Shown here: piece after piece, positions 1,561-27,347 of the stretch
How positions within the stretch are numbered: the stretch's first letter is position 1
Layout of the letters: every line of letters begins with the position of its first letter
Assembly: GCA_023544605.1 (NCBI GenBank)
Contig: JAMJFQ010000003.1
Span: forward strand, 1 to 34,075
DNA: 34,075 nt
Reading direction: 5' to 3'
Origin: ANME-2 cluster archaeon
Lineage (GTDB): Archaea; Halobacteriota; Methanosarcinia; Methanosarcinales; Methanocomedenaceae
Position numbers and translations under genes: made by a program
The notes under the pieces: generated by a model
Told to the model about the DNA's origin: nothing
Databases searched by the model: none
What the model saw: only the letters and a program-made list of their open reading frames with translations

Positions 1561-1929
1561 ATGTCTAAAAGCATAAATATGGACATATTGTTCAAAAAAG
1601 TACAAAAAGACCTGTCGAACCTAAAGGGAGTGAAAAAATCCCTGGTTGCCAGTCAAGATGGATATATCTTCAGCAATACTGCCGAGTCAATGTTAGAAAT
1701 GTATGCAAAGGCATCGGCAGCACTGTTAAGGACAGCAGATACAGCCACAGCAAAAGTGGGTAGGAATTGTTCAAAACGGGTGGTCATAGACTACCCTAAT
1801 GAAAGGCTTATAGCCATACGTGCAGGCCCCAAAGCCCTTGTGGCAGTCATTGCAAGAACCGGCACCGGACTGGATCCCCTCATAATAGAACTCGACAAAG
1901 CTGCAGATAAGGTCCGAGAGATAATATAG
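1561..1929 (+). CDS. Roadblock/LC7 (MglB-like) domain protein
   Basis: 122 aa; GVKKSLVASQDG motif, central helix, three beta strands and a C-terminal helix typical of roadblock domains. Confidence 0.75.
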   Translation: MSKSINMDILFKKVQKDLSNLKGVKKSLVASQDGYIFSNTAESMLEMYAKASAALLRTADTATAKVGRNCSKRVVIDYPNERLIAIRAGPKALVAVIARTGTGLDPLIIELDKAADKVREII

Positions 1930-1998
1930 TCCTTCAAACTAAATATTTAAGGGTCTTGAAAACTGTCTGAGCTGACAGCATTTAACAGAGGTATACCC

Positions 1999-3006: not shown

Positions 3007-3129
3007 ACACAATCTATCCATTTGAAATCGTGGGGTAAACTACGTATAACTATGGTGATTTATGCTCATATTCCGACAACAAAAGCAAAAAGGAATACTT
3101 ATTTTATGCCTGCCATCGTCATAGGGCTG

Positions 3130-4593: not shown

Positions 4594-4604
4594 GGATTAC
4601 ACAG

Positions 4605-5210
4605 ATGACGGGAAAACTGATAACACTTGAAGGTATTGACGGTTCAGGCAAATCCACGATGAGAAAACGCCTGGAACATCATTTCAGGGATGACCCTGGC
4701 GTGATATTTACCAGGGAACCCACCAGGGATTGGACAGGTGAGGCAGTGAACCGGGCCATAAGGGAAGAAACTGACCATTTGGCAGAGTTATTCTTATTTG
4801 TTGCAGACCATGCAAACCACCTGAGCAGGACAATAAGACCTGCCCTTGAAAATAATAAGACCGTGATATCTGACAGATACTCGGACAGCAGGTATGCATA
4901 CCAGGGTGCCACGTTAAATGGGATCATCAATAAGCCCATGGAATGGGTTATAGAAATTCACAAAGGTTGGACTGTGGTCCCAGATAGTACTATCCTGTTC
5001 GATGTCAGCCCGGAAGTGGCAGTTTCCAGGGTGGGGAACCGTGACCATCAGACCAAGTTCGAGAAGATCAGTTTCCTGGAGCAAGTGCGCTCAAATTATC
5101 TTAGACTGGTAGATATACAGCCGGAGCGTTTCATTATTGTGGATGCTGAGCAACCATTTAGTAAGGTAGAACAAGCAGTGTTCAAAGCTGTAAAAGATAA
5201 TATGGCTTAA
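4605..5210 (+). CDS. tmk: Thymidylate kinase
   Basis: LITLEGIDGSGKST P-loop, TREP, DRYSDSRYAYQG. Confidence 0.96.
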   Translation: MTGKLITLEGIDGSGKSTMRKRLEHHFRDDPGVIFTREPTRDWTGEAVNRAIREETDHLAELFLFVADHANHLSRTIRPALENNKTVISDRYSDSRYAYQGATLNGIINKPMEWVIEIHKGWTVVPDSTILFDVSPEVAVSRVGNRDHQTKFEKISFLEQVRSNYLRLVDIQPERFIIVDAEQPFSKVEQAVFKAVKDNMA

Positions 5211-5235
5211 CAAATCACCAAAATAATAAAAATGA

Positions 5236-5525
5236 ATGGTGGGCTGACCCTCCAGATTTTGGAGGGCTCCCGGTTAGGGACTTACGCTTGCATTCACCCA
5301 CTCCTGCGCACGTACGTACATCGTACACATGCACCAACGTTCTTGAAATGAAGGAGGGAGGTCTGACCCTTCAAGACTATGTTCTGTCTTGTGCCTCTCA
5401 CGGCAATGTCAGTCAGCTCCGATATGTTATCGGAAGCATATACCTTCACTCTTTCATTGCTAGCCCACGTAGCATGCACTTCAGTGGTGTCAGTTCTATT
5501 TCTGACCTCGAAATACTGAAGCATG
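5236..5525 (-). ncRNA. Candidate large structured non-coding RNA (~290 nt), family unknown; overlaps a 76-aa ORF with no recognisable motif
   Basis: About ten nested helices by eye, including long-range GUGGGCU/AGCCCAC (5468-5462/5245-5239); TATA-like AAAAAATATAAT about 25 nt upstream; U-rich tract downstream. Confidence 0.55.
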
Positions 5526-5655
5526 GTTTATGTTGTTCTATACTCTATTATATTTTTTGGTAAATAACCAGATAACACCATTGAATATAAAATTGATAAC
5601 AATTACGATAACAATTAGGGTAATGAATAGAATAACTGGCCCGACAATAACGAAT

Positions 5656-6399
5656 TTAAATTGCCCTTGCAAATGTAATGAAACCAGTATGCCCTACCCT
5701 GCTCGTGGATGGGCGTGTCCCCCTTTCGCTGAATGATATTTCTCTCTGGGTACACTCCAGGGTGACCACCTCTTCAAATTTTGCAGAATTTATAGCCATG
5801 CGAACATCCCTGGCTTGCTCTATAAAAGGTGAGAACACCACAAGATATCCACCGGGTTTGAGCACCAGTAGGACATAGGGCACAACTTCAGCTGCTGTGT
5901 GCATATCAAGGGTTACCACATCAAAGGTCTCATCCAATGAACGTATTTCCTCAACTAAATCGCCCCCCCTGACATCCACGTTATCAAGTCCTGCTAGTGC
6001 AATGTTTGACCTTGCCACCTCTGCAAAATCCTCCCTTACCTCAAAGGTCACAACCTTCCTGGCAACAAGCCCCAGATAGATGGCAAGGATACCTGAACCC
6101 GTACCAGCATCCAATACAGTATCCTCTTTATTGAGACCAGTGTGGCCCATTATCATCCCGATATCTTTTGGACTAATAGGAGCCCCGGTTCGTTTTATAG
6201 AATTGAAAAGATCAATAGCCCTCAGGCGATATATCTCCATTTCAAAACCAAGGTGGGATGCGATAATGTCTCCATACTCCTTTTCCAGAAGTTGACCCAA
6301 CTTGAAAACTCCCACTTCGGTATGAAGGTCTTCATTACCTGCACTAACAATATATTTCTTACCGCCCCCTTTAAGCAGTACAGCCACTCCCTGTTTCAA
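5656..6399 (-). CDS. trmI: tRNA (adenine-57/58-N1)-methyltransferase TrmI (GCD14 family)
   Basis: PKDIG, VLDAGTGSG SAM motif, FEVREDF, LDM, FSPFIEQ, TRP...GHTGFITFAR. Confidence 0.93.
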   Translation of the reverse strand: MKQGVAVLLKGGGKKYIVSAGNEDLHTEVGVFKLGQLLEKEYGDIIASHLGFEMEIYRLRAIDLFNSIKRTGAPISPKDIGMIMGHTGLNKEDTVLDAGTGSGILAIYLGLVARKVVTFEVREDFAEVARSNIALAGLDNVDVRGGDLVEEIRSLDETFDVVTLDMHTAAEVVPYVLLVLKPGGYLVVFSPFIEQARDVRMAINSAKFEEVVTLECTQREISFSERGTRPSTSRVGHTGFITFARAI

Positions 6400-6495
6400 A
6401 ATCTATCACACTCAATTGATACTATCCGTGTAATTGGTTTTATCACGGGACAGGTTTCTTCATTAACGTATTTGATAAATTACCCTCCTACTATT

Positions 6496-8046
6496 TCAAG
6501 CAGTCTGATTATTGCGAACCAGCAAGGAATGCCCGGTCATCTGGGGTGGGATATCCAGGTGGAGCAGCTCCAGCATGGTGGGGACAATATCCGCAAATAT
6601 CCCTTCCAGCAGGCTTACATTTTCCATTTGTGATACAAAGACCAGCGGCACCCGGTTAGTAGTATGCGCCGTATGTGGGCTGTTATCATCATAGTATATC
6701 ATCTGCTCGCTATTACCGTGATCAGACGTTACCAGTGCTGCACCACCGCAGGACTTTATTGCATCCAGCACCCTGCCCAGGCATTCATCCACAACTTGTG
6801 CAGACTGCACAGCAGCATCCAGCATACCGGTATGTCCCACCATATCCAGATTAGCATAATTAGCTATAATAACATCATAATTCCCGGACGTTATCCTGTT
6901 TTGCAATATTTCGGTCACTTCATAGGCACTCATCTCTGGTTGCAGGTCGTAGGTGGGTACTTTTGGTGAAGGGACAAGCACCCGTTCTTCTCCTGGATAT
7001 GGTTTTTCGACACCTCCATTGAAGAAGAATGTTACATGGGCATATTTTTCTGTCTCAGCAATGTGAAGCTGCCTTTTATTGCATTTGCTCAGATATTCGG
7101 CCAACGTATTTTCAATATGCGCATGGGGGAATGCAAGGGGCAGGTTAAAGGTCTCGTCATACTGGGTCATACAGACAAAATAGATGTCTGGCACCTGTTT
7201 TCGTTCAAAGCCGGAAAAATCATTTAACGTCACGGCGCCTGTCAGTTCCCTTGCCCTATCAGGTCTGAAATTGAAGAAAATCACAGCATCGCCATCATTT
7301 ATAGTGGGAGTGGCCTCTTTTCCTGACAACATCACAGTAGGTCTGATGAACTCGTCGTTCTCACCCCTCTCGTAAGCAGACGTCACGGCCTCCTGTGCAC
7401 TGGATGCCTTCTCACCTTCACCCAATGTCAGTGCATTGTATGCCAGGCTGACCCGCTCCCACCTCTTGTCCCGGTCCATGCTATAATACCGGCCACTTAC
7501 TGTGGCTATCTTCCCAACACCAAGTTCTTGCATTCGGTTTTCGGTCCGCATGATATATTGCAGGGCGGACCGGGGCGGTACATCCCTGCCATCCAAAAAA
7601 GCATGAATAAATACCCTGTCAAGTCCTATCTGCTTAGCCATCTCCAGCAACGAGAACAGATGGTCAATATGACTGTGGACGCCTCCATCAGACAACAAGC
7701 CCATAAGGTGAAGTGAGGACCCCATCTCCAGCGCATGATTAAAAGCACTTCTTAATACCTCATTGGAAAAAAAATCACCATTACCTATAGAATTATTTAT
7801 CATGGTAATGTCCTGGTATACCACCCTGCCCGAACCCAGGTTCAGGTGTCCAACCTCGCTATTCCCCATAAGACCTTCTGGGAGACCCACCGATTTACCA
7901 GAAGACTCTAGAGTAGTATTAGGATATTCACTCAACAGCCGGTCCATCACTGGTGTATGAGCTAGAGCTACTGCATTTCCCTCAGCTCGCTGATTAATGC
8001 CCCAACCGTCAAGTATTACCAGAACAATCGGTTTTGGAACTACCAT
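6496..8046 (-). CDS. gpmI: 2,3-bisphosphoglycerate-independent phosphoglycerate mutase (bacterial-type iPGM)
   Basis: LVILDGWG, MGNSEVGHLNLG, SDGGVHSH, DGRD, GRYYSMDRD, AETEKYAHVTFFFNGG, DMVGHTG, SDHGN. Confidence 0.97.
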   Translation of the reverse strand: MVVPKPIVLVILDGWGINQRAEGNAVALAHTPVMDRLLSEYPNTTLESSGKSVGLPEGLMGNSEVGHLNLGSGRVVYQDITMINNSIGNGDFFSNEVLRSAFNHALEMGSSLHLMGLLSDGGVHSHIDHLFSLLEMAKQIGLDRVFIHAFLDGRDVPPRSALQYIMRTENRMQELGVGKIATVSGRYYSMDRDKRWERVSLAYNALTLGEGEKASSAQEAVTSAYERGENDEFIRPTVMLSGKEATPTINDGDAVIFFNFRPDRARELTGAVTLNDFSGFERKQVPDIYFVCMTQYDETFNLPLAFPHAHIENTLAEYLSKCNKRQLHIAETEKYAHVTFFFNGGVEKPYPGEERVLVPSPKVPTYDLQPEMSAYEVTEILQNRITSGNYDVIIANYANLDMVGHTGMLDAAVQSAQVVDECLGRVLDAIKSCGGAALVTSDHGNSEQMIYYDDNSPHTAHTTNRVPLVFVSQMENVSLLEGIFADIVPTMLELLHLDIPPQMTGHSLLVRNNQTA

Positions 8047-8067
8047 TATATAGCAACCTTCATTGAG

Positions 8068-8550
8068 CTATTTCTTCTTTCCGAAGAGTTCATTCATGGT
8101 AATAATACTTCCAATTACCAATACAATTACAGACGCAATATTGAACATTAAGGAAGTATTATAATCCTGCCATATCTCACCCGTACGGTTGGTGCCCAAT
8201 GGAATAACTAACGGCTCAAGCAGTGTCATATCCATTTTAGTATACAGGTAAATGGTAATTCCAACAATGATAAAGAACACCCCAAATACCAGATCAGGTG
8301 TATATAGGGTATGTCTATACTCGATCTTCTTCAGCGGTATCTGGAATTCGCCAAGGATCTCATCTTCTACTATCCTTCCCTCTACCCTGGCCAACAATTC
8401 CCTGTACTTAGTACTAAGACTGTTTTTGGTATGTTCAGATATCTCCTGATTCTGGTACTTCTCTTCTATCCTGATAAGAGCTCCTTCAATTTTAGTTTTG
8501 ATGCGATTTAGCTGAAAGATCATCTGTTCTTTTTGGACCATACTCTGCAC
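8068..8550 (-). CDS. Hypothetical membrane protein (N-terminal coiled coil, two C-terminal TM helices)
   Basis: 160-aa ORF filling the gap on the same strand as its neighbours; two hydrophobic segments. Confidence 0.75.
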   Translation of the reverse strand: MQSMVQKEQMIFQLNRIKTKIEGALIRIEEKYQNQEISEHTKNSLSTKYRELLARVEGRIVEDEILGEFQIPLKKIEYRHTLYTPDLVFGVFFIIVGITIYLYTKMDMTLLEPLVIPLGTNRTGEIWQDYNTSLMFNIASVIVLVIGSIITMNELFGKKK

Positions 8551-8610
8551 CTTCTAAATTAATATATGATATTAATAATTAAGATATATAGCAATATATC
8601 TTTTACTACC

Positions 8611-8650
8611 ATAAAAAAGAATAAGAGTACATGAAACTGTTCATGCACTC
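8611..8650 (-). terminator. Hairpin plus U-tract after the cytochrome gene
   Basis: Inverted repeat GAGTACATGAA/TTCATGCACTC (8625-8650) followed on the minus strand by TTATTCTTTTTT. Confidence 0.5.
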
Positions 8651-8660
8651 ACGTTCATTT

Positions 8661-9782
8661 TTATTTTACTTCCGGGAAACCCAGATTGTGTGCACTCTGG
8701 TGGCAAGTAGTACATCCACTTGACATCCCGTGCTTTGAACCATGACATGTGGTACATGAAGGGATATGTCCATGTTGTGGATGACAGTATGCACAATTCT
8801 TGTTGGTATGGCCTGTGACCTTTTCTATAAGATGTCTTGCATTCTCTTCATGACATCCTGCACATAGGGTCGAAGGCGTATCTGCCGGATAGTCCACCTG
8901 GGTTGGGATGTGGCCTTGCAAATGACACTGCTTACAGTCTTGTTGAGTCATTGTCTCATCATGGCCTTTATGACAGCTGGTACAATCCAGCCAGTCCCCA
9001 TGAACCGGGTGACATAGTGTGCAATCAAGCTCTGCATGCCTGGTTGGTTTGGTTTCAAATGTTGTCTCTATCACTGGAGAATGGCATTTAGCGCATTCAT
9101 TCTCGCTGACCAAAGAAGAGAACTCAATATCCCTTGGAGCATGGGCATTTATGTGACATTGTGAACAATCCTCAAATCCTGACGGATGATACACACCATG
9201 ACAGTCAGTACATTTTGGTTTATAACCATGCTGTGGATGACAGAAAGCACAACCTTTCTTGGAATGTTTACCTCCTTCCAGGTTTAATGATGCCACAGGT
9301 TTTACATGACATTCACCGCATGTCTGTTCAGACATGCCCCGTTCGTGTCCCTTATGACACGAATTACAATCTGTCACATCTTCATGAGGATTAATTAACC
9401 GCCGGCTGGTCCGTGAAATATAGTCTTCATGACATTTCAGGCAGCGCAACTTATTCTCAAGCGTCACTACCTCTTCCGGAGCCGGAGGTGCATCCAGGCC
9501 GGTCACATCATAAATGAGCATTTTTCCGATTTCTTTCTTGAATAACACTGTACCTAAACTTCCGGTTTCTTCATGGCACTGGGTGCATGTGATACCATGT
9601 TCATTGTGGAGAAAATCAAGGGAATCACCAGGAGTTATATATTTTTCATATTCAATTCCATGGCACATCTCACAGAATTCGGTTTTTGTTACGAAGTTCC
9701 AGCCTTCGGTTGCACTGAACACTACGATCAATGCCATTATTGCAATCAGTATTACTATCGTAATTCTTGTAGATAGTGCCAT
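8661..9782 (-). CDS. Membrane-anchored multiheme cytochrome c, 16 CxxCH motifs
   Basis: N-terminal TM helix, NapC/NirT-like opening (FCEMCH...HxxHGITCTQCH), 16 CxxCH counted; start set at MALS after GGAG. Confidence 0.93.
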   Translation of the reverse strand: MALSTRITIVILIAIMALIVVFSATEGWNFVTKTEFCEMCHGIEYEKYITPGDSLDFLHNEHGITCTQCHEETGSLGTVLFKKEIGKMLIYDVTGLDAPPAPEEVVTLENKLRCLKCHEDYISRTSRRLINPHEDVTDCNSCHKGHERGMSEQTCGECHVKPVASLNLEGGKHSKKGCAFCHPQHGYKPKCTDCHGVYHPSGFEDCSQCHINAHAPRDIEFSSLVSENECAKCHSPVIETTFETKPTRHAELDCTLCHPVHGDWLDCTSCHKGHDETMTQQDCKQCHLQGHIPTQVDYPADTPSTLCAGCHEENARHLIEKVTGHTNKNCAYCHPQHGHIPSCTTCHGSKHGMSSGCTTCHQSAHNLGFPEVK

Positions 9783-10005
9783 ATCAATATCTCCATCCAT
9801 TATTCAAAATTATACAACGCTTAGTTAATGATTGACTTTTTTGTGGTGTTAAACCTTCTTAACCTTTACGATAATGGTTGAATTGTTATTGCATTATTTC
9901 TGAATGGTAATATTTTTTTGCATAGATAACTGGCATCATACATTTACAATCAGAAAGTATCCAATGATTTATATTGTTCAAATCTATAGTAAGATATGAA
10001 TTTGT

Positions 10006-11214
10006 ATGAAAGCAGTCATTCTTGCAGCAGGAGAAGGTCTCAGATGTAAGCCTCTAACGCTTACTCGTTCAAAGGTAATGCTTTTCGCTGCAAACAAACC
10101 AATTCTGGAACATGTGATCAATGCCCTTGTACAGTGTGGTATTACTGATATCATAATGGTTGTGGGATATAAGAAAGAGCGCATCATGGATTATTTCCAG
10201 GATGGGGTGGAATGGGGAGTGAACATCATATATGTTGAACAAAAAGGTCAGCTTGGGACCGCTCATGCCATTAAACAGACCTCAACGTATCTGGATGATG
10301 AGTTTATTGTGTTAAATGGCGATAATATCGTAGAATCAGGTACAATCTCCGATATTTTGGAAAATCGTTCAGGTGATGCAACGATCTTGACAGTCACACG
10401 CGAGCAAACCAGAGGCTATGGCGTGGTTGTACATGATGACCATCACGTGCTGAGGATAGTGGAAAAACCTGTGGAAGACCTTAGTCATAATGTGAATACA
10501 GGTATATACATCTTCAAACCTGATATCTTCGAATTTATTAAAGCAACTTCCGTATCTGATACCGGGGAATATGCAATAACCGATACTCTGCAGGATATGA
10601 TAGATGCAGGAAAGAACATTAGTTTTGTGCATTCAGAATCTACGTGGATTGACGCTGTACATTCATGGGACCTGCTGCGTTCCAATGCCTACTTGCTGGA
10701 GCGTTGTGAAAAGTCGGTAATGGATGGCACCATTGAAGAAGGGGCTGTGGTCAAAGGCAATGTCATTATCGGAACCAATACCATTATTCGTTCAGGATCA
10801 TATGTAATAGGGCCGGTAGTAATTGGAAAGAATTGTGAGATCGGGCCCAATGCCGTAATACTCCCTTCAACAACCATAGGTAATAATTCAACTGTGGAAT
10901 CATCGGTGCAGATCAAGAATAGTATTATTATGAACGATGTAAGGATAGGTCCGTTCTCATATATATCCAACTCCATTATTGGTGCAAATAACACTATTGG
11001 GTCACATTTTATTACGCAAACAGGCGAGAATATTTTAATCGAATTAATAGGTATACTTCACTGGGCTGAAAAACTAGGGACCGTGATCGGCGACGGGAAT
11101 GATATCCAGCATAGGGTACTTACCGAACCTGGAAAGATGATATCCACCGGGTGCAGTATCTCATCTGGGGTCATTATCTCAAAGGACCTGCCAAGAGATT
11201 CCATAGTAATTTGA
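10006..11214 (+). CDS. Sugar-1-phosphate nucleotidyltransferase with hexapeptide-repeat domain (GlmU paralog)
   Basis: MKAVILAAGEG, QLGTAHA, LNGD, EKP, left-handed beta-helix repeats. Confidence 0.9.
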   Translation: MKAVILAAGEGLRCKPLTLTRSKVMLFAANKPILEHVINALVQCGITDIIMVVGYKKERIMDYFQDGVEWGVNIIYVEQKGQLGTAHAIKQTSTYLDDEFIVLNGDNIVESGTISDILENRSGDATILTVTREQTRGYGVVVHDDHHVLRIVEKPVEDLSHNVNTGIYIFKPDIFEFIKATSVSDTGEYAITDTLQDMIDAGKNISFVHSESTWIDAVHSWDLLRSNAYLLERCEKSVMDGTIEEGAVVKGNVIIGTNTIIRSGSYVIGPVVIGKNCEIGPNAVILPSTTIGNNSTVESSVQIKNSIIMNDVRIGPFSYISNSIIGANNTIGSHFITQTGENILIELIGILHWAEKLGTVIGDGNDIQHRVLTEPGKMISTGCSISSGVIISKDLPRDSIVI

Positions 11215-11243
11215 AAGAATATATTTGGGATGAACTAAAAACA

Positions 11244-13073
11244 ATGTGCGGCATAGTCGGTTATATAGGGGAGGGGGATGCGGTCAGTATCCTCATCGAA
11301 TCCTTAAAGAAACTGGAGTACAGGGGATATGATTCAGCGGGCTTGGCCCTTCTGGACGATGAAGGCAAACCACAGGTGTTCAAGAGTGAAGGGGAGATAT
11401 CCCAGCTTGAATCGATCCTGCCAAAACTATCGTCATGCGTGGGTATAGGTCATACCAGGTGGGCAACCCATGGCAAACCCAGTACCGTAAATGCACATCC
11501 TCATGTTTCAGGGAGTATTTGCGTAGTACATAACGGAATCATTGAAAATTACCAGGAGTTAAAGGAAGCACTTGAATCAGAAGGTTTTATTTTTGTTTCA
11601 GATACTGACACGGAAGTACTGGCCCACCTGATAAACAAGTATCACACAGAACATCCGGGTGACCTCGCTGGTGCCCTGAAAAGCGCCTTGGAAGTAGTAC
11701 GTGGTTCTTATGCACTGGCTGTGCTTAGCGAAGAGCATCCCCATGAACTTGTGGCTGCCAGGAAGGACAGCCCCCTTATCATCGGGTTGGGTGAGAATGA
11801 GAATTTTATTGCATCTGATATACCTGCCATTCTGAAATATACTAACAGGGTCATATACGTGGACAATCTTGAGATGGTCACGGTCAAAAAGACTTCGGTC
11901 CAGGTGTTCGACCTTGAAGGTAATCCTAAAACCAAGGAAGAACATATCATCCAATGGGATCTGGAGGCGGCTGAGAAGGCCGGATATCCCCATTTCATGC
12001 TCAAAGAGATCCATGAACAGACCAGTTCAATTCATGAGACACTGGCGGGGAGGCTGCAAGAACTCGAAGGTGATGTTACCTTCGAAGAACTTGGCCTGGA
12101 TAAGGAGCAGATACGCAAACTTCAGAGAATCGAGATAATTGCCTGCGGGACCTCATATAATGCGGGTCTGGTGGGCAAGTACCTTTTTGAAGGGCAGACT
12201 GGCATTCATACAGATGTGGATAATGGTTCCGAGTTCAGGTATTCAAATCCCGTATTAGCACCTTCTACTTTGGTAATAGCCATCACCCAGTCAGGTGAGA
12301 CCGCAGATACACTGGCAGCAGTACGTGAGGCTGCATCCTATGGTTGTAAGACCCTGGCTATTACTAATGTAGTGGGCAGTACCATGTCCAGAGAGGCATC
12401 TAACACTATCTATACCAGGGCCGGGCCCGAAATTGGGGTAGCTGCTACTAAATCATTCATTTCACAGCTTGTGGTACTTTATCTTTTAGCTATTCACTTT
12501 GCACGGGTATGCTCGATGATGGATGCTGACAGGGTGCGAAAGCTCTTATCCGAACTTCGCAAAATACCTGGGCATGTGGACCGCATCCTGATGGATAAGG
12601 AGAGGATACAGAAATGTGCTGCCAGATTCTCAGCATCAAAAGATTATTTCTTTATCGGGCGTAATATCAATTACCCTATAGCTCTTGAAGGAGCACTGAA
12701 ATTAAAGGAGATATCATATATACATGCCGAAGGATATGCCGCCGGAGAATTAAAACACGGACCGCTTGCCTTATTATCAAAAGATGTACCAGTGGTGGCT
12801 ATTGCCCCCCAGGGTCATACGTATGATAAGATACTCAGCAACATCAGGGAAGTAAAATCACGGGAGGCCTCTGTCATTGCCATTGCCGATTCAGATGACA
12901 ATGAAATATCCAAGTACGTGGATGTGGTCATACCCATTCCGAAGACTGATGTAATATTATCACCCTTGCTCACTACCGTGGTTGTCCAGTTACTGGCTTA
13001 TTATACTGCACTGGAGAGGGACTGTTCCATTGACAAACCCAGGAATCTTGCCAAGAGCGTGACTGTGGAATAA
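11244..13073 (+). CDS. glmS: Glutamine--fructose-6-phosphate transaminase (isomerizing)
   Basis: MCGIVG N-terminal nucleophile start, LEYRGYDSAG, GHTRWATHG, QSGETADT, PRNLAKSVTVE. Confidence 0.98.
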   Translation: MCGIVGYIGEGDAVSILIESLKKLEYRGYDSAGLALLDDEGKPQVFKSEGEISQLESILPKLSSCVGIGHTRWATHGKPSTVNAHPHVSGSICVVHNGIIENYQELKEALESEGFIFVSDTDTEVLAHLINKYHTEHPGDLAGALKSALEVVRGSYALAVLSEEHPHELVAARKDSPLIIGLGENENFIASDIPAILKYTNRVIYVDNLEMVTVKKTSVQVFDLEGNPKTKEEHIIQWDLEAAEKAGYPHFMLKEIHEQTSSIHETLAGRLQELEGDVTFEELGLDKEQIRKLQRIEIIACGTSYNAGLVGKYLFEGQTGIHTDVDNGSEFRYSNPVLAPSTLVIAITQSGETADTLAAVREAASYGCKTLAITNVVGSTMSREASNTIYTRAGPEIGVAATKSFISQLVVLYLLAIHFARVCSMMDADRVRKLLSELRKIPGHVDRILMDKERIQKCAARFSASKDYFFIGRNINYPIALEGALKLKEISYIHAEGYAAGELKHGPLALLSKDVPVVAIAPQGHTYDKILSNIREVKSREASVIAIADSDDNEISKYVDVVIPIPKTDVILSPLLTTVVVQLLAYYTALERDCSIDKPRNLAKSVTVE

Positions 13074-19446: not shown

Positions 19447-19524
19447 GGGCTCGTGGCTTAGCCAGGATATAGCGCCGGGCTTCTAACCCGGATGTCGAGG
19501 GTTCGAATCCCTCCGGGCCCGCCA
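19447..19524 (+). tRNA. tRNA-Arg(UCU) with encoded CCA
   Basis: Acceptor GGGCTCG/CGGGCCC, anticodon arm CCGGG-CTTCTAA-CCCGG, T arm GAGGG-TTCGAAT-CCCTC. Confidence 0.97.
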
Positions 19525-19548: not shown

Positions 19549-19654
<106 letters not shown>

Positions 19655-20153: not shown

Positions 20154-20255
20154 AAAATACTATTATCTTGTCACAGACCTGTTATTGGATTAATACCACC
20201 CTCACATCAAAACCTTTATGAACATCGATAACTACAATAATCAATGGTGAACAAT

Positions 20256-20654
20256 ATGGTCAAATTATCCCCTGACGTTAAGGAAGTAATCCAAAAACAG
20301 AAACCTCTGCCTATTGCAACAGCAGATAGTACCGGTAAGCCTAATGTGGTTTTTGTTGGTACGTGGAAGTTCATTGATGATGAGACTATAATGATCGTGG
20401 ATAATTTCTTTAAAAAAACCGCAGTAAATCTCAAAGCCAATCCCAGGCTGTCCATTGTGGCTTATGATAGTGAATCCAAGCAGTCATATCAGGTCAAGGG
20501 TTCGGTAGATTATCTTGATGAGGGCGACCGTTTCGATGAAGCCAAAGCCATAGCACAAGCAAAGAACCTACCAGGCAAGGCTGTTGTAATATTCCACATT
20601 GAAGAGGTCTATGATGCCGTGTACGGAAAACATGCCGGTGAACAAATAGCTTAA
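20256..20654 (+). CDS. Pyridoxamine 5'-phosphate oxidase-family FMN-binding protein
   Basis: IATAD..GKPNV, DNFFKKT..NL..NP, SYQVKG; start set after GGTGA. Confidence 0.88.
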   Translation: MVKLSPDVKEVIQKQKPLPIATADSTGKPNVVFVGTWKFIDDETIMIVDNFFKKTAVNLKANPRLSIVAYDSESKQSYQVKGSVDYLDEGDRFDEAKAIAQAKNLPGKAVVIFHIEEVYDAVYGKHAGEQIA

Positions 20655-20691: not shown

Positions 20692-21045
20692 TTGACAGAA
20701 ACAGCATCGAAAAAACAGAATGATAAAGACGTATACATTGGTGATGAATTCTCTGAAGAAGAGGATTCACAGGGAGAACAGGAGGTCAATGAACTGGAAG
20801 GCTTGTATGACCTTTTAATACCGCCTGGAGTACCTGAATCATTGATAGTGGAACTGGTGGATGAGTTTGATCTGGAACCGGTGACCAGACTTGCCAATGT
20901 TGACATCGTTGAAGTTGACCCTCGCGAACTTATGGCACTGCGCGGTGATTTGGAAATAGTAAACGAGGCCCACGATTACATGGTCAAGCGAATGCATGAA
21001 ATAACGAATGGTGGATATAAAAGCCCGTGGGTAGATAACGATTGA
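20692..21045 (+). CDS. Acidic hypothetical protein
   Basis: 117-aa ORF with YDLLIPPGVP and LRGDLE motifs; GGTGA upstream of the TTG start. Confidence 0.75.
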   Translation: MTETASKKQNDKDVYIGDEFSEEEDSQGEQEVNELEGLYDLLIPPGVPESLIVELVDEFDLEPVTRLANVDIVEVDPRELMALRGDLEIVNEAHDYMVKRMHEITNGGYKSPWVDND

Positions 21046-21047
21046 AC

Positions 21048-21761
21048 CTATCTGCTGCTATTTGATCTTTCCCTGTACAGAGCTGCACCCAGGGCATTGA
21101 CCAGCTGGGGTGCAATCGGTACTTCTATTTTTGAATCCAGCACAGCATTTACTGCATCGACTATACCTGTGTTCTGTACCGTACCACCAATGAGCATTAC
21201 CTTATCGGCAGGCGGGACCATCTGGGCGATACGCCGTGCAAAAGCCTGGTGCAGTCCGTATATGACGTCTTCCATAGTGTATCCCCCAACAAGCTGAGAG
21301 ATCATCTCAGATATAGCGAACACGCCACATGTGTTGTTTATCTGTACTTCTTTTGTTGCCCGTTGGTGCATATCGCCCAGAGAGTCGACAGGTATGTCAA
21401 AATAGCGTGCGGCCAGTTCTAAAAAAGCGCCTGTGCCTGCACTGCACTTATCGTTTATAATAAAGGTATTACTGCGCAGGTCGATGACTTTTGTGTCCTG
21501 CCCGCCGATATCAATAATAACCTGTGCCTCTGGGTCATGATATCTGGCACCCAGTGATGCAGCGGTTATTTCAGTTATTGCAGTAAAGTGGGGTACTTTC
21601 TTCCTGAAATAGCCGGTGGATATAATGCGCTTTTCATCCTGTCCATCATCTATCAGTTCCCTCCAGCGATGGCTCGGCACAACTTCTGAGAAAATTATCT
21701 CTCCTGTTTCCATATGCACTATTTTGGCAGTGGTACTGCCCACATCAAGCCCTATATTCAC
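21048..21761 (-). CDS. ATP-dependent [4Fe-4S] activase (HgdC/BadF/BcrA-D family, ASKHA ATPase)
   Basis: GLDVGSTTAK, ISTGY, EITA, IDIGGQDTK, NDKCSAGTG, TCGVFA; overlaps the upstream gene by 4 bp. Confidence 0.92.
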   Translation of the reverse strand: MNIGLDVGSTTAKIVHMETGEIIFSEVVPSHRWRELIDDGQDEKRIISTGYFRKKVPHFTAITEITAASLGARYHDPEAQVIIDIGGQDTKVIDLRSNTFIINDKCSAGTGAFLELAARYFDIPVDSLGDMHQRATKEVQINNTCGVFAISEMISQLVGGYTMEDVIYGLHQAFARRIAQMVPPADKVMLIGGTVQNTGIVDAVNAVLDSKIEVPIAPQLVNALGAALYRERSNSSR

Positions 21762-22699
21762 GGCATTACCTCCAGCATCTCTGCAAAGGCTTCCAGCCTG
21801 AGCTTGAGCTGTTCAGAAGACGGGCGGGGCAGGTCGCCCTGGACGGTCAAGATGGGGTAATCAAGGTGCTGTCTGAATATTTCATCTTCCAGGGTATGAT
21901 GGCAGGCAAATTGGGTATAATGTATGACTCCATCTACACGCCTCTGGCGCAGTTCATCCTGTATGAACCATACCCTGGTCTCAATGGGCCCGGCAAATGA
22001 GTACTTTGTATAATTACGGGCCAGGGAATCAAGGTCACACCCCCCCAGACGTATGAACTCGTACGGCAGTTCATCATATACTATATGCAATCCGAAACCT
22101 TCAGCCACCTCATGGAAGTCCGGATATATGGGCGGGACACCAATAAGTGCCACCCTGCTGGTATATTCTACATCTGCTTCGGGTATGCTGTCAAGTGTTC
22201 TTTCAAATGCATCCAGGTCTCCTGCCAGGTCACTGAACGATATCAGTGCTGAGAACACATCACTTGCCCGTGCACGGTCATTCACCCTTTGTTCATCCAG
22301 TGCCTTGCCCCTGGATTTCAGGTCAGTGATGCGGGTAATTATTCCGTCATCTTGTACGCCGCCAAGAAACAAGCTGAGTTTTTCCAGTTGTGATCTAAAG
22401 TAATCTGTATCCCCATCAAAGGGATAAAAGAAATAATGAGTAGGCTTACCGCTCAGCTCTGCTTTTTGCCCATCCACCAGTGCGTTGTGGCAGTCACCGC
22501 CGGCAACCACTACCAGCGAATCAATGTCCAGTTCACCGCTCAGGATCATATCCCTCCACACAGCGGTCCAGGCACACAGTTTACTAGCCGGACTTGAGGA
22601 GGAGCCAGGTACTACATTGTTCACATCCAGGGGGCGCTTACCGCATGCATAAATGAGTTCAGGCGGCACCAGGGCAGTTATACCGACCGTATCTTTCAT
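21758..22699 (-). CDS. 2-hydroxyacyl-CoA dehydratase-family (HgdA/B, FldB/C-like) Fe-S protein, single subunit
   Basis: VPPELIYACG, three cluster cysteines (KLCAW, GGDCH, QFACH), VDGVIHY, EQLKLRLEAFAEML; start set at MKDTV because the track's start lies inside a MITE end. Confidence 0.88.
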   Translation of the reverse strand: MKDTVGITALVPPELIYACGKRPLDVNNVVPGSSSSPASKLCAWTAVWRDMILSGELDIDSLVVVAGGDCHNALVDGQKAELSGKPTHYFFYPFDGDTDYFRSQLEKLSLFLGGVQDDGIITRITDLKSRGKALDEQRVNDRARASDVFSALISFSDLAGDLDAFERTLDSIPEADVEYTSRVALIGVPPIYPDFHEVAEGFGLHIVYDELPYEFIRLGGCDLDSLARNYTKYSFAGPIETRVWFIQDELRQRRVDGVIHYTQFACHHTLEDEIFRQHLDYPILTVQGDLPRPSSEQLKLRLEAFAEMLEVMP

Positions 22700-22743
22700 C
22701 GGGTGACAATAGATTTGTTCACTATTATCTCTTACCCCCAACA

Positions 22744-23112
22744 GGCACTGTACCAAAAATCAGTTATTTTGTTGACACCGACTTAGGGTAAAATCTGTGT
22801 TAATCAGTGAAATCTGTGTCTGAAAAATAAATAGACACAGATTTCACAGATTCACACTGATTTGTAGTCGCATTTGCATCTGATATATTCGCTGTATAAC
22901 TGGATTTTGGTATTGTGTCATTCGTATTCATTGCCAAATCCACTGAAAACGTTATGAAAGATTGGGATTTCGGAAAAGTTATTAAGGGTGCTGTTTATTG
23001 TTGTCATGTTTGATGCAAAGTAATATCATCACTTTATATTACAAATAAATTATGTATTTATTGTGATGATATTACAACTTTGTATTACATAACTGGATTA
23101 TGGGACTGTGCC
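22744..23112 (+). mobile_element. Composite non-autonomous element (MITE), 369 bp, with 9-bp target site duplication
   Basis: Ends GGCACTGTACCAAAAATCAGTTAT and ATAACTGGATTATGGGACTGTGCC (19/24 inverted match); CCCCCAACA on both flanks (22735-22743, 23113-23121); extra internal end at 22896-22919; hairpins at 22791-22863 and 23020-23075. Confidence 0.9.
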
Positions 23113-23158
23113 CCCCCAACATAAAGATTTAATCATATGAATCCTATGGGGGACTGGC

Positions 23159-24199
23159 ATGAAACTATCGGATTTTGATTACCACCTACCACAGGATATG
23201 ATAGCCCAGAAACCTGCCGACCCACGGGATTCTTCAAGATTGATGGTGCTCGATGAAAACGAGCGGCATCACAGTACTTTTTCTGAACTTCCCCATTTAT
23301 CGCATTCCCAAGATCTGTTGATATTGAATGACAGCAGGGTGATACCGGCCAGGTTATACGGTACCAAAAATACAGGTGGGAAAGTAGAAGTGCTACTGGT
23401 TAAACGGCTTGAGGATAAGTACTATGAATGCCTGGTCAGGGGTAGGGTAAAGGTGGGGGGGAAACTCAATTTTACGACTCTATCAGGCACAATAGAGGAA
23501 CGTGTAGACTCCCATACAGGATACCGTTATAATATCAGGTTCCAGTGTGATGAGGATTTCATGTCCTGTCTCTTCGTGGATGGAGTCATGCCAGTACCGC
23601 CCTATATTAAAGAGCATCTGGATGATGGAGAGAGGTACCAGACAATTTATTCAAGGGATGAAGGCTCTATTGCGGCACCCACTGCCGGACTGCATTTTAC
23701 AGCACAGTTACTTGACAGGATTAAGAAGATGGGAGTAAGGCTGGCATTTATCACACTGCACGTGGGTGTAGGCACATTCATGCCGGTTCGTGCCGAAGAT
23801 GTGGAAGAGCATACCATGGAGAGCGAATATTATACCATTGACGAAGATACCGCTCGTGCCATTAATGATACCATAAAGGGGGGAGGCAGGATAATCGTGG
23901 TCGGTACAACCACGGTCCGGGCGCTGGAAAGTGCGAATTGGCACAATGGCAACATTGCACCATCCCGGGGCTGGAGTGAGATATTCATACATCCCCCTTA
24001 CCAGTTCAAGACACCCATCAGTGGTCTGATCACCAATTTCCACCTTCCAAGATCAACACTGCTAATGCTGATCAGTGCCTATGCTGGCAGGGATGTGGTG
24101 CTGGCGGCATACAGCGAGGCCATTGCTAAGGGTTACAGGTTCTACAGTTTTGGAGATGCGATGTTCATTATGGGTAACAAGGAGGGGAAGAATGTTTGA
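23159..24199 (+). CDS. queA: tRNA preQ1(34) S-adenosylmethionine ribosyltransferase-isomerase
   Basis: MKLSDFDYHLP..IAQ.P, NDSRVIPARL, PPYI, YQT, AAPTAGLHFT, TLHVG.GTF.PV, VGTT..RALES, TNFHLPRSTLLML, YRFYSFGDAM. Confidence 0.98.
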   Translation: MKLSDFDYHLPQDMIAQKPADPRDSSRLMVLDENERHHSTFSELPHLSHSQDLLILNDSRVIPARLYGTKNTGGKVEVLLVKRLEDKYYECLVRGRVKVGGKLNFTTLSGTIEERVDSHTGYRYNIRFQCDEDFMSCLFVDGVMPVPPYIKEHLDDGERYQTIYSRDEGSIAAPTAGLHFTAQLLDRIKKMGVRLAFITLHVGVGTFMPVRAEDVEEHTMESEYYTIDEDTARAINDTIKGGGRIIVVGTTTVRALESANWHNGNIAPSRGWSEIFIHPPYQFKTPISGLITNFHLPRSTLLMLISAYAGRDVVLAAYSEAIAKGYRFYSFGDAMFIMGNKEGKNV

Positions 24200-25307
24200 G
24201 ATAGTGCGCCAGGAAAAAATGTCTGGAGCAAGGGTGGGAAAACTGACCACACCTCACCAGGTTGTAGATACCCCGGCATTCATGCCTGTGGCGACCAAGG
24301 CCACGATCAAGACGCTTACTCCCAACGAGATACGTGAGATGGGAACCCAGGCCATCATAAGCAATGCCTTCCACCTCTATCTTAGCCCGGGTTACGAACT
24401 GATCCAGGAGGCAGGTGGCCTGCATACATTCATGGATTGGGACGGTGCCATTTTCACGGACAGCGGCGGGTTCCAGATATTGCGCAAGGAGTTCAGGTTC
24501 AAACTGAACAACAAGGGTATAAGTTATGTAAATTCCAGGGACGCAAAGCGATATATGTATACCCCTGAGCTGTGTATGGAAATACAGGGTGCCCTGGGTT
24601 CTGACGTGGCAATGGTGCTGGATGACTGCCCGCCCTGGGGCAGCACCCGTGATGAGGTCATGGAGTCGGTTTGCAGGACAGTGAACTGGGGGCAGCGCAG
24701 CCTTGATGCCAGGTGCAATAAAAACCAGCTGGTCTTTGCCATATTGCAGGGGGGGACATATCCTGAGATGCGGGAAGCCTGTGCCAGTCGATTAGTGGAT
24801 ATGGACTTTGACGGTTATGGTATCGGGGGATTGAGTATTGGCGAGCCAAAAGATGTCATGCATGAGACTATCAGGCTGAACCTGACCCAGATACCGCCTG
24901 AGAAGCCCCGCTACCTGATGGGAGTGGGCTCGCCCGTGGAACTGCTGGAATCCATATCATTGGGGGTTGACATCTTTGACAGTGCATTCCCCACCCGCAA
25001 CGCCCGGCACCAGACCGTGATGACCCGATACGGGCAGATGGATCTGCGGCGCTCATCCCTGGTTAGGGATTTCAGACCCATTGATGAGAAATGCGGCTGC
25101 TATACCTGCAGGCATTTTTCCAGGGCATATCTGTACCACCTGTTCAAGGAATCAGAACTGCTGGCCATGCGGCTTGCATCCATACATAATGTCCATTTCC
25201 TGCAAGAGTTGATGAGAGAGGCAAGGAATGCTATTTCAGAGGAGCGGTACAGTGAGTTTCGGGAACAGTTCAAGCGTGAATATTCAAGTCCGGCCAATAC
25301 AGCCTAA
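24192..25307 (+). CDS. tgt: Bacterial-type tRNA-guanine(34) transglycosylase
   Basis: TPAFMPV, NAFHL, TDSGGFQ, LDDC, QGG, GGLSIGE, PRYLMGVG, GVDIFD, PTRNAR, CxCxxC...H Zn site; 371 aa with no PUA domain; overlaps the queA stop. Confidence 0.95.
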   Translation: MFEIVRQEKMSGARVGKLTTPHQVVDTPAFMPVATKATIKTLTPNEIREMGTQAIISNAFHLYLSPGYELIQEAGGLHTFMDWDGAIFTDSGGFQILRKEFRFKLNNKGISYVNSRDAKRYMYTPELCMEIQGALGSDVAMVLDDCPPWGSTRDEVMESVCRTVNWGQRSLDARCNKNQLVFAILQGGTYPEMREACASRLVDMDFDGYGIGGLSIGEPKDVMHETIRLNLTQIPPEKPRYLMGVGSPVELLESISLGVDIFDSAFPTRNARHQTVMTRYGQMDLRRSSLVRDFRPIDEKCGCYTCRHFSRAYLYHLFKESELLAMRLASIHNVHFLQELMREARNAISEERYSEFREQFKREYSSPANTA

Positions 25308-25531
25308 GTCTTCTGGAGAGTTATCCTGAAAATACTGTTCTCATTTACCCATTTCAATACCCTGCACCGCTTATGGAATATGGACATAAGGTCAGGCAGT
25401 AGGGAAGCACAATCAGAAACCACTTCCAGTCTTTCACCGTGGGACATCTGCTTTAACCTTGAATTTGTCAAGAACAACGGGATAGGGCAGGTTTTTCCAA
25501 TAGTATCGAGGAACTGGATATTCATTGTCAT
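25304..25531 (-). CDS. TusA/SirA-family sulfur carrier
   Basis: LDTIGKTCPIP motif, GERLEVVSD, ~75 aa; start set at MTMNIQ. Confidence 0.75.
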   Translation of the reverse strand: MTMNIQFLDTIGKTCPIPLFLTNSRLKQMSHGERLEVVSDCASLLPDLMSIFHKRCRVLKWVNENSIFRITLQKT

Positions 25532-25763
25532 ATCTCTTTTCTTCCTGTAATATTCTTTGCCAAAATACCGGACCTTTATTCTCATTATTTGGAATGAAAA
25601 ATACATATTTAATAGTTTCCGTATTTGCATGGATAATGGTCTAATTGTGACAATATTGAACAAACATTATACAAATCGGTAATTATTGATTTAAAATAGT
25701 CGTATAAAAAAGCTTCACTGGCTGTGAGTTAAGTATTGTTTACATTAGCATTATACGGGATTT

Positions 25764-26177
25764 TCACACTATGTGCTTAGCCACTTCCCCGGCAAGTTCC
25801 TGGAACTCTTCCTGTGACGGTGTGGTCCCATCATATTTGTATTCAATGCCATCCCCGGTGTTTCGCGGTACAATATGGCAGTGGAAGTGGTGAATAACCT
25901 GGCCTGCCACTTCTCCGTGATTGATAACAAGATTGAACCCTTCAGGTCCTATAACTGCCTGTAAGCCATTGACAACCTTTTTTACCGTCCTGAACACTGC
26001 CGCAACATCATTGTCATCCAGATCGGTGATCTTTTCACCATGCTTTTTTGGTATGACCAATGTATGGCCCCGGTTGTTAGGGTTTATGTCCAGAAATGCG
26101 AGGGTATCATCGTCCTCGTATATGGTATAGCTCGGTATCTCTCCAGAGATTATTTTACAAAATATGCAATCTTCCAT
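25764..26177 (-). CDS. HIT family nucleotide hydrolase
   Basis: CIFCKI, AFLDINP, GHTLVIPK, AGQVIHHFHCHIVPR histidine triad. Confidence 0.95.
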   Translation of the reverse strand: MEDCIFCKIISGEIPSYTIYEDDDTLAFLDINPNNRGHTLVIPKKHGEKITDLDDNDVAAVFRTVKKVVNGLQAVIGPEGFNLVINHGEVAGQVIHHFHCHIVPRNTGDGIEYKYDGTTPSQEEFQELAGEVAKHIV

Positions 26178-26183
26178 TACAAA

Positions 26184-27347
26184 TCACCTTTTATGATTGT
26201 TCTGTGGAATATTCATGTGTTTGAACTGCATATTCCTCATTATATCCTTCATTGTTACGATCCCTTTTATCCTGCTATCCTGGATGACCAGAAGCCTACC
26301 GATATTATTTTTAGCAATGGTCTGGAGGGCATGATATGCCTCATGTTCAGGACGTACTGAAATAATATCCTTTGTCATAATATCCCTCACATGGACAGTA
26401 TTGTGCAGTTCCATTGACACTTTTTGCACATCTTCGAAGGTTACAACTCCCATTGGGGGCTTATCCAGGTCTTCCTGCACTGGATATCCCATATGCTTGA
26501 ACCTGAACATAACATCCACAAGCTGGGATATGGTCCAGTCCGGGGGTATATATATTAAATCCGGCGCATGGGTCATGACATCTTTCACCTTGATCCCTTC
26601 AAGGCTTATGGCAAAGAACGTTTCCCGCTCTTCACCCTGCGCACCATAGTACACAAATAACGCTATTAAGACAAGTATTATGTTTATTGTGAGCAAACCG
26701 AAAATTCCCATTAAGAATGCAAAGGTCTTACCTATCGAAACTGCCATGCGGGTGGCATCCATGTACGGCAGCCATAATGCCAGAAATGCCCTTAGGACAC
26801 GGCCCCCGTCCATGGGAAAAGCTGGCAGCAGGTTGAATATACCCAGTACCAGGTTGTAGAAGGAAATGATCCCGGCTGTTATAAGTACCGCATTTTTAGC
26901 GTTCATCCCCATCTCGCCCATGTCCGCAGGACCATAATACATATAGAAAGCATAGGTCACTATACCTATAACCAGGCTTATGCCCGGACCTGCGGCAGCC
27001 ATTTTCAGTTCAAGCTTTGGGTCGCGGGGTATTTCCTCCATCTGGGCCACTCCTCCGAATACAAAAAGGGTTATGCTCTTGATATCCAGTCCATTTCTTT
27101 TTGCAACGAATGAATGGCTTATCTCATGCAGCAGGATAGTAGAGAAGAACAGGATAGATGCAATGGTACTGAAAACAAGTTTTTCCATCAATGATATGTC
27201 CATGCCGTAGAAACCCAGTACGAGTGTACCTATCTGGAATTCAAATGATGAAAAGTAGTAAATGAACAATAGTAGTATAAAGAGGAAAGTGATGTGTAGT
27301 TGTATAGGAATCCCGATGACTTTTCCGATCTGTACTGACCATTTCAC
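26184..27347 (-). CDS. Site-2 protease (M50) with CBS domain pair
   Basis: LHEISH, AAAGP, FNLLPAFPMDGGR, two C-terminal CBS repeats. Confidence 0.95.
   Translation of the reverse strand: MKWSVQIGKVIGIPIQLHITFLFILLLFIYYFSSFEFQIGTLVLGFYGMDISLMEKLVFSTIASILFFSTILLHEISHSFVAKRNGLDIKSITLFVFGGVAQMEEIPRDPKLELKMAAAGPGISLVIGIVTYAFYMYYGPADMGEMGMNAKNAVLITAGIISFYNLVLGIFNLLPAFPMDGGRVLRAFLALWLPYMDATRMAVSIGKTFAFLMGIFGLLTINIILVLIALFVYYGAQGEERETFFAISLEGIKVKDVMTHAPDLIYIPPDWTISQLVDVMFRFKHMGYPVQEDLDKPPMGVVTFEDVQKVSMELHNTVHVRDIMTKDIISVRPEHEAYHALQTIAKNNIGRLLVIQDSRIKGIVTMKDIMRNMQFKHMNIPQNNHKR

Follow-up and report, generated by a model that had tools for sequence, protein, structure and literature searches.

A lone HgdB-like iron-sulfur protein and its activase as a candidate preQ0 reductase in archaea with a bacterial-type queuosine pathway

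A 34,075-nucleotide contig of an ANME-2 cluster archaeon (GenBank assembly GCA_023544605.1, contig JAMJFQ010000003.1; the whole stretch is called the window here) carries two genes which lie head-to-head with the queuosine genes queA and tgt. One encodes a lone HgdB-like predicted [4Fe-4S] protein and the other an HgdC-type ATP-dependent activase. This gene pair very probably belongs to 7-deazaguanine metabolism. Its specific role is probably that of an ATP-driven reductase which converts preQ0 to preQ1 and replaces QueF in archaea with an acquired bacterial queuosine (Q) pathway, to judge from gene content and distribution. An earlier note on this DNA had preferred the same reading. The support it now receives is from comparative genomics: a hole in the pathway, co-occurrence with queA, exclusion of QueF, and gene linkage.

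The gene pair

The HgdB-like protein is encoded at 21758-22699 on the minus strand. It matches PF06050 (HGD-D; 2.5e-26, 93.5 bits against a cut-off of 28.4) and is the proposed catalytic subunit of the preQ0 (nitrile) reductase. The longest open reading frame (ORF) at this position, 21758-22756 (minus strand), has 332 codons from a TTG; since orthologues are 311-313 aa long and their alignment begins at the ATG at 22699, a length of 313 aa is taken as correct. The activase gene (21048-21761, minus strand) has a GTG start and encodes 237 aa. It matches PF01869 (1.7e-36) and the acyl-CoA dehydratase activase family TIGR00241 (182.4 bits, cut-off 125.4). The stop codon of the HgdB-like gene and the start codon of the activase gene overlap as GTGA, and a GGAGG lies ~7 nt upstream.

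Three cysteines of the HgdB-like protein (C42, C70 and C266) are conserved without exception, both among 12 orthologues and among 53 wider relatives drawn from both clades of the family. In the activase, C106 and C145 are invariant in all 65 aligned sequences, as is the D6/G8/S9/K13 nucleotide motif. The earlier description of a translationally coupled pair, with a three-cysteine protein of ~313 aa and an HgdC-like activase, is therefore correct. It was also correct in placing no second dehydratase subunit, CoA-transferase or acyl-CoA dehydrogenase nearby. The HgdB-like gene is the only PF06050 gene found in the whole genome, and neither a CoA-transferase nor an acyl-CoA dehydrogenase is present among the window neighbours scanned. 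A CoA-transferase or acyl-CoA context is likewise not seen among the annotated recurrent neighbour clusters of 80 orthologue loci.

PF06050 is the only Pfam match in the HgdB-like protein, in which no RNA- or DNA-binding domain is detected. Neither protein of the pair matches PF14489 (QueF); any relation to QueF would be functional analogy rather than homology. No fused forms of the archaeal clade occur among the longer proteins searched, which is weak evidence.

Pathway content of the source genome

The source genome (G000) comprises 1.63 Mb in 129 contigs and is 97% complete; the window is its contig C23. The nearest relatives of the organism are ANME-2a-type Methanosarcinales, 'Ca. Methanocomedens'. 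The genome contains QueC (203 bits), QueD/PTPS, QueA and a bacterial Tgt; an archaeal tgtA-like gene is separate from the latter, at C25:384-1358. Canonical QueH is encoded on contig C126 (203 bits). QueF (PF14489) has no match in the genome and no QueG scores over the cut-off. The transporters YhhQ/Vut_1 (PF02592) and QueT (PF06177) also have no match, and preQ1 salvage by these known routes is rejected for this genome. Because QueH is present while QueF, QueG and the transporters are not found, the single unfilled step of the Q pathway in this genome appears to be the conversion of preQ0 to preQ1. QueA chemically requires the product of this step.

As the earlier note stated, neither queF nor queG/queH is in the window; canonical QueH is, however, present elsewhere in the genome. 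The note had offered replacement of QueG/QueH as its second choice. This is rejected, as epoxyqueuosine reduction is already covered by QueH, both here and in 44 of 50 orthologue-bearing genomes. Canonical queF together with queG/queH in the genome had been named as evidence against the proposal; QueH is found and QueF is not.

PF02649 (MptA/FolE2) has no match in the genome and one match in each of four Methanoperedens genomes. Such a gap is unexpected in an archaeon that depends on methanopterin, and the 3% of the genome not assembled may contain the gene.

Distribution of the HgdB-like protein, queA and QueF

In the collections searched, orthologues of the HgdB-like protein (50-98% identity, 307-351 aa) occur in archaea only. 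The family tree separates this archaeal clade from a mostly bacterial sister clade (30-37% identity) by a long, fully supported branch. Among viral contigs there are 87 pattern matches, none of which is a relative.

Orthologue-bearing archaea nearly always carry queA. Fifty of the 80 genomes with an orthologue locus were sampled and the other 30 left out; 45 of the 50 contain queA (near full length in 42), 44 contain QueH, and QueF exceeds its cut-off in two. The pattern is the same in the organism's own class, Methanosarcinia, where an orthologue was scored at E<1e-100. Here, 29 of 251 genomes have the orthologue and 27 have queA, all within those 29; queA is present in none of the 222 genomes without the orthologue, and QueF is present in three. 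In a sample of the phylum (161 genomes from 26 families), the orthologue and queA are found in the same five genomes.

Thermoplasmata provide the sharpest test because queA is common in this group. Of 251 genomes, 100 contain queA (full-length and canonical in 56, at E<=1e-100), 44 contain QueF over the cut-off, and eight contain the orthologue. The queA count includes two unpublished genomes, G393 and G506, neither of which is among the 56. All eight orthologue-bearing genomes have queA (a fragment only in one case) and none has QueF. The 56 canonical-queA genomes divide into 36 with QueF, seven with the orthologue, two with only a paralogue of 32% identity and 11 with neither; the orthologue and QueF are never found together. 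Such complementarity is what non-orthologous displacement of QueF predicts, and mere co-transfer does not predict it. The phylogenetic profile which the earlier note had suggested as a check thus comes out in favour: the subfamily co-occurs with queA and excludes QueF among queA-bearing Thermoplasmata. Its premise that archaea generally lack a nitrile-reducing QueF needs correction, as the 44 QueF-bearing genomes of this class demonstrate that the absence is not uniform.

The two paralogue-bearing Thermoplasmata with queA and no QueF are G421 and G334. In G421, the only locus of the two that was inspected, the neighbours are S-adenosylhomocysteine hydrolase and MoeA, and there is no activase.

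In about 33 Thermoplasmata genomes there is a QueA-like gene of divergent sequence (E 1e-36 to 1e-74), which often covers model positions 19-322; some of these genes are contained in open frames as long as 783 aa. These genes are distinct from canonical QueA; examples are G476:C9:62908-63921 and G369:C27:41687-42694. Two divergent genes of this type root the QueA tree on a long branch, and the list of genomes concerned includes the unpublished G393 and G506.

Gene neighbourhoods

Neighbouring genes in the 80 orthologue loci were clustered without prior bias, and adjacency to queA-tgt was scored by tblastn. The activase is the most frequent neighbour cluster; it adjoins the HgdB-like gene in 64-66 of the 80 loci. 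queA-tgt directly adjoins the HgdB-like gene in divergent orientation in 14-15 loci; these represent ANME-2a, Methanocellales, several Thermoplasmata and unclassified archaea. In 22 loci, mostly from Methanoperedens, the gene immediately upstream, in the same orientation, is FolE2/GCHY-1. As neighbour clusters, tgt is found in 13 loci, queA in 11 and QueH in six (within 10 kb). Linkage of homologues to que genes, on which the earlier proposal partly depended, is therefore real. In Methanoperedens the pair is unlinked from queA-tgt; nevertheless, both are kept in 18 of the 19 genomes of that family in the class sample.

On the complete 3.2-Mb Methanomassiliicoccales chromosome G019 (locus L035), a queA fragment of ~80 residues stands beside an intact HgdB-like gene. 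The 20-kb locus contains no tgt and no activase and looks like a decaying Q locus.

A DpdA-like island and two QueF cassettes

The complete 4.6-Mb genome G227, of Methanosarcinaceae type, has the pair and contains neither queA nor bacterial Tgt. Its HgdB-like copy nests inside the archaeal clade. Here the pair closes an island (L095, G227:C1:3192566-3212500; positions 495-11661 of the locus) whose genes all lie on the same strand. The order is GNAT, a DpdA-like TGT, three uncharacterised ORFs of 269, 163 and 1296 aa, a weak PglZ-like match, a HerA/mad8-like ATPase and the pair. The DpdA-like protein matches phrog_887 (2e-11) and the PADLOC DpdA model (8.8e-6); its PF01702 score of 25.4 bits is just below the cut-off of 26.3, and a sequence search of the PDB gives no match. 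DpdA-like genes are not found in the other 160 loci.

This island is a second, independent link of the pair to an enzyme of 7-deazaguanine insertion. Epoxyqueuosine cannot be present in this setting, where both queA and bacterial Tgt are missing. The island is possibly a system of new composition for 7-deazaguanine DNA modification or for defence.

Three genome handles combine the orthologue with QueF; since G021 and G245 are the same, these are two distinct cases, and both were examined. In G005, an ANME-2 metagenome-assembled genome (MAG), QueF is part of a cassette on a 100-kb contig (L177, G005:C258:41000-52000; positions 4046-8987 of the locus) with the order FolE, QueC, QueF, DpdA-like TGT (phrog_887, 1.6e-45) and sliding clamp. 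It looks like a viral or proviral DNA-modification cassette of the dPreQ1 type. In G021, QueF is accompanied by QueC and a DUF932 phage-family gene (phrog_1221). From their gene content, both co-occurring QueFs look like parts of viral or mobile DNA-modification cassettes and not like the QueF of a tRNA pathway.

It is more probable than not that the archaeal clade is a second, evolutionarily unrelated class of nitrile reductase, driven by ATP and supplied with electrons by ferredoxin. It would have displaced QueF as methane-cycling and further anaerobic archaea took up the bacterial Q pathway, and would have been recruited at least once to a DpdA-type DNA-modification or defence island that makes a preQ1-derived DNA base.

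Fold and oligomeric state

The HgdB-like protein belongs to the superfamily of 2-hydroxyacyl-CoA dehydratases, benzoyl-CoA reductases and double-cubane proteins (HAD/BCR/DCCP). This is evident from its PF06050 score, its fold, its cysteine ligands and its dedicated ATPase partner. The AlphaFold2 model has a predicted local distance difference test score (pLDDT) of 96.4. A Foldseek structure search places HadBC, BzdNO, MbdON and DCCP, and nothing else, in the top 16 PDB matches (probability 1.00, TMq 0.68-0.84). By sequence, the protein is remote from all four. Its best PDB sequence-profile match is DCCP (2.3e-6), over the C-terminal ~75 residues only. Against NF040772, the double-cubane equivalog, it scores 33.6 bits over the C-terminal 86 residues only, where the cut-off is 350. 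The relatedness to double-cubane proteins proposed earlier holds at superfamily level and fails at the level of the equivalog.

The protein probably works as a homodimer, according to structure modelling. The homodimer model scores 0.77, compared with 0.00 for the best of three controls; in calibration, this mark was reached by 20 of 30 proteins with structures solved as pairs of one chain and by one of 23 with structures solved as single chains, a rough guide here as a custom alignment was used. At least 94% of contacts agree between runs, partner pLDDT values are 92 or higher, and the predicted interface surrounds C42, C70 and C266.

Proposed mechanism

In the proposed reaction, a two-component iron-sulfur reductase would convert preQ0 (7-cyano-7-deazaguanine) to preQ1 (7-aminomethyl-7-deazaguanine). 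The activase dimer would hold a bridging [4Fe-4S] cluster on C106 and C145 and would receive an electron from ferredoxin. ATP hydrolysis would then drive the transfer of this electron, at very low potential, from the activase to the HgdB-like protein's own [4Fe-4S] cluster. With only three cysteines (C42, C70 and C266) as ligands, this cluster would keep one iron open for binding of the nitrile nitrogen. The C≡N group would pass through an imine to CH2-NH2 in four successive transfers of an electron and a proton. The electrons would be consumed and not recycled, a feature in common with benzoyl-CoA reductases and with the double-cubane protein. The adjoining bacterial-type Tgt would place preQ1 at position 34 of the tRNA; QueA would convert it to epoxyqueuosine and QueH would complete the synthesis of Q.

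Alternative explanations

The first alternative keeps the chemistry and changes the substrate. The preQ0 nitrile would be reduced after insertion, in preQ0-tRNA made by the bacterial-type Tgt or as dPreQ0 in the DNA of the DpdA-like island, and not as the free base. This reading agrees just as well with all of the phyletic and linkage evidence. In G227, the island links the pair with a DNA-type transglycosylase, and bacterial Tgt accepts preQ0 in vitro. However, the 12 orthologues are acidic to neutral (isoelectric point 4.7-6.7, net charge -21 to -1), properties seldom seen in nucleic-acid binders. The protein is also compact, with PF06050 as its sole domain and no detected RNA- or DNA-binding domain, and its solved relatives bind small molecules. 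Reduction of the bound base is unlikely on these grounds.

The second alternative is an unrelated function, such as that of a small-molecule reductase or dehydratase, with the pair hitchhiking in a block transfer with queA-tgt. The superfamily is functionally diverse and the sister clade has no que linkage; in addition, genomes with the HgdB-type enzyme are strongly clustered on the QueA tree and may have a single origin. Hitchhiking does not, however, predict the exclusion of QueF, nor does it predict independent associations with folE2, QueH and DpdA-like genes in different lineages. It also sits poorly with Methanoperedens, which retains pair and queA-tgt at separate loci. For a dehydratase, moreover, a second subunit is not found in the source genome and no CoA-transferase is present among the window neighbours scanned. 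An unrelated function is accordingly improbable.

The remaining alternative places the pair elsewhere in the Q pathway (electron supply to QueH or its repair, a second epoxyqueuosine reductase, or a further modification of Q); it fits the co-occurrence and clustering with queA, tgt and QueH, yet it is very unlikely, as canonical QueH already fills the step in the source genome and in most orthologue-bearing genomes, the exclusion among the 56 canonical-queA genomes is specific to QueF, and G227 keeps the pair near a DpdA-like gene where epoxyqueuosine is impossible.

A number of observations weigh against the pair being a preQ0 reductase that replaces QueF. Eleven of the 56 canonical-queA Thermoplasmata have neither QueF nor the orthologue; either queA persists without both, through salvage or a third enzyme, or these MAGs are incomplete. 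Two orthologue-bearing genomes, G227 and G279 (93% complete), do not have queA; in G279 the orthologue sits on a 2.7-kb contig. In the source genome, de novo synthesis of preQ0 is not fully documented, as QueE is not recognised: ten radical-SAM candidates were scanned and none scores over a QueE cut-off.

Independent events are few. The genomes are related, and block transfer of a Q island could yield much of the co-occurrence. Mapped on the QueA tree, the HgdB-type label requires at least one change (the minimum forced by well-supported branches) and at most six. The tree, in which the mistranslated G039 row (branch length 10) should be disregarded, is poorly resolved between in-place displacement and block transfer and is compatible with few origins.

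Gene context also contains exceptions. In ~14 of the 80 loci there is no adjacent activase; of four such genomes checked, an unlinked orthologue (58% identity) is present in one, and the others have only paralogues of 34-43% identity. The folE2 link is ambiguous because the linked GCHY-1 gene is the sole copy in all four Methanoperedens genomes tested, and it may serve methanopterin synthesis as well. In 80 metagenome loci of the sister clade, queA, tgt, queC, queF and folE2 are found in none and QueH in one. The neighbours there are the activase, a MurI-like racemase, RtcA (RNA 3'-phosphate cyclase), RNase PH/Ham1, MetH and a 112-aa uncharacterised ORF. Overall, the sister clade neither helps nor refutes the proposed function.

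With regard to structure and chemistry, the homodimer pass may reflect likeness to the solved HadBC and DCCP complexes. To our knowledge, nitrile reduction has never been reported for the HAD/BCR/DCCP superfamily. A review of November 2026 describes QueF as the sole known enzyme family for direct nitrile-to-amine reduction.

Members of the sister clade (L097-L176) are lone HgdB-like proteins of ~325 aa from Geobacteraceae, Planctomycetota, Nitrospirota and others; their RNA-processing neighbours are suggestive.

The queA-tgt side and other features of the window

queA, which encodes tRNA preQ1(34) S-adenosylmethionine ribosyltransferase-isomerase, lies at 23159-24199 on the plus strand (PF02547, 2.6e-122; NF001140, 426.8 bits, cut-off 324). 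It is followed on the same strand by bacterial-type tgt, encoding tRNA guanosine(34) transglycosylase (24192-25307; TIGR00430, 443.3 bits, cut-off 306.75). The start of tgt is probably the ATG at 24192, which overlaps the queA stop codon.

The pair, on the minus strand, is divergent from queA-tgt. The spacer is 459 bp in the window and ~98 bp between starts in the relatives L015-L017. The extra DNA (22744-23112) has 24-nt terminal inverted repeats (22744-22767 with 23089-23112) and is bordered by a 9-nt direct duplication (22735-22743 and 23113-23121). It consists of two elements resembling miniature inverted-repeat transposable elements (MITEs). Element A (22744-22920, ~177 bp) has terminal and internal inverted repeats and is missing from L015-L017. 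Element B (22920-23112, ~193 bp) has a terminal repeat in common with element A and one further 100% copy at C124:7714-7906. Element A recurs elsewhere in the genome in at least 20 copies (79-100% identity), one of which is at 133-308 of the window. This ~176-bp MITE-like family probably breaks the assembly, because several copies sit at contig ends.

Removal of the 369 bp and one 9-bp target copy leaves 81 bp. The earlier figure of ~80 bp after removal of a MITE therefore stands; the insertion is two MITE-like elements and not one. The left part of the ancestral ~81-bp divergent intergenic region is at 22700-22743, as judged from alignment with L015-L017, and ends in the first target copy. 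The right part (23113-23158) begins with the second target copy, followed by a block conserved with relatives just upstream of queA. This conserved A/T-rich block is a putative promoter. Rfam finds two tRNAs in the window and nothing else, so that neither a preQ1 riboswitch nor any other Rfam element is recognised close to the pair. One is tRNA-Arg(TCT) at 19447-19521; the second (19549-19652, 104 nt) is found by Rfam and not by ARAGORN, and probably contains an intron.

Two genes are convergent to the activase: an uncharacterised 117-aa ORF (20692-21045) and a PNPOx-like flavin/F420-type protein (20244-20654). They are syntenic with the pair in 11-12 ANME-2 loci, including those where queA-tgt is elsewhere. 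The region downstream of tgt (25304-27347, minus strand) encodes a TusA-like sulfur carrier, whose gene is convergent with tgt, as well as a HIT-family protein and a CBS-domain M50 peptidase. Among the 80 loci of relatives, tblastn finds HIT in one, M50 in one and TusA in none. An ORF of ~380 aa at 8661-9803 (minus strand), with repeated CxxCH-type motifs, probably encodes a multihaem cytochrome; C63 and C41 carry ORFs like it.

Significance

QueF has a strict substrate range, which limits its use in biocatalysis. A second and mechanistically different route of nitrile reduction would, if true, matter for enzymology and green chemistry. It would be a new reaction for ATP-driven iron-sulfur reductases and would give a function to a lone-subunit branch of the superfamily, of which lone-subunit relatives are also widespread in bacteria. 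It would also fill the preQ1-source gap in archaeal queuosine synthesis. Castelle et al. (2021, PMC8204110) reported QueA, QueH-like and Tgt proteins as co-localised in 34 archaeal genomes, some of them from Methanosarcinales; their main text does not take up the source of preQ1. Nor does it contain the words QueF, preQ, dehydratase or activase, and Supplementary Table 5 of that paper, on neighbouring genes, could include the HgdB-like gene. In the literature collection searched, whose scope excluded supplementary tables (notably this Table 5), no paper links the HgdB-like family to queuosine or preQ0.

If the pair is a preQ0 reductase, the tRNAs of Methanoperedens, ANME-2, some Methanocellales and some Thermoplasmata are predicted to contain queuosine as well as archaeosine. 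A further link, to 7-deazaguanine DNA modification and defence biology, is suggested by the DpdA-like island.

Comparison with known systems

The 2-hydroxyacyl-CoA dehydratases (HgdAB/HadBC with HgdC/HadI) share with the pair the fold (3o3n_B, E 1.6e-15, TMq 0.74), PF06050, a three-cysteine site for a [4Fe-4S] cluster and a TIGR00241 ATPase gene immediately downstream. Unlike these enzymes, which have an alpha/beta pair, the system described here has one subunit gene; the heterodimer of two paralogous subunits which marks a dehydratase proper is absent, and a homodimer is modelled. The protein is 313 aa long, compared with ~375-400 aa in the matched chains, and its genes are linked to tRNA-modification genes, with no CoA-transferase or acyl-CoA genes nearby. 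Dehydratases recycle one electron, whereas the proposed reaction would consume four.

DCCP and its reductase DCCP-R (PDB 6ENO, 7YYL) carry out ATP-driven reduction of small unsaturated molecules such as acetylene. DCCP is the best PDB profile match, has a similar fold (TMq 0.81) and is a homodimer, as is predicted here. In contrast to DCCP, whose [8Fe-9S] cluster is held by six cysteines, the HgdB-like protein has three invariant cysteines; it is also shorter (313 compared with 421 aa) and fails the NF040772 equivalog.

Catalytic subunits of class I benzoyl-CoA reductases (BzdNO, MbdON) have the highest structural similarity (8s02_B, TMq 0.84, root-mean-square deviation 3.2). These enzymes carry out an ATP-coupled, electron-consuming reduction, as the proposed enzyme would. 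They differ in identity (15-17% by Foldseek), in being heterotetramers whose other subunits are not found here, and in acting on CoA esters.

QueF, the NADPH-dependent 7-cyano-7-deazaguanine reductase with a T-fold, has no homology to the pair. Its mechanism, with NADPH and a catalytic cysteine, would be different from one with iron-sulfur clusters, ATP and ferredoxin. The two would nevertheless act at the same pathway step, and their distribution among queA-bearing archaea is complementary. QueF in viral or mobile cassettes adjoins DpdA-like genes, and the pair does so in G227.

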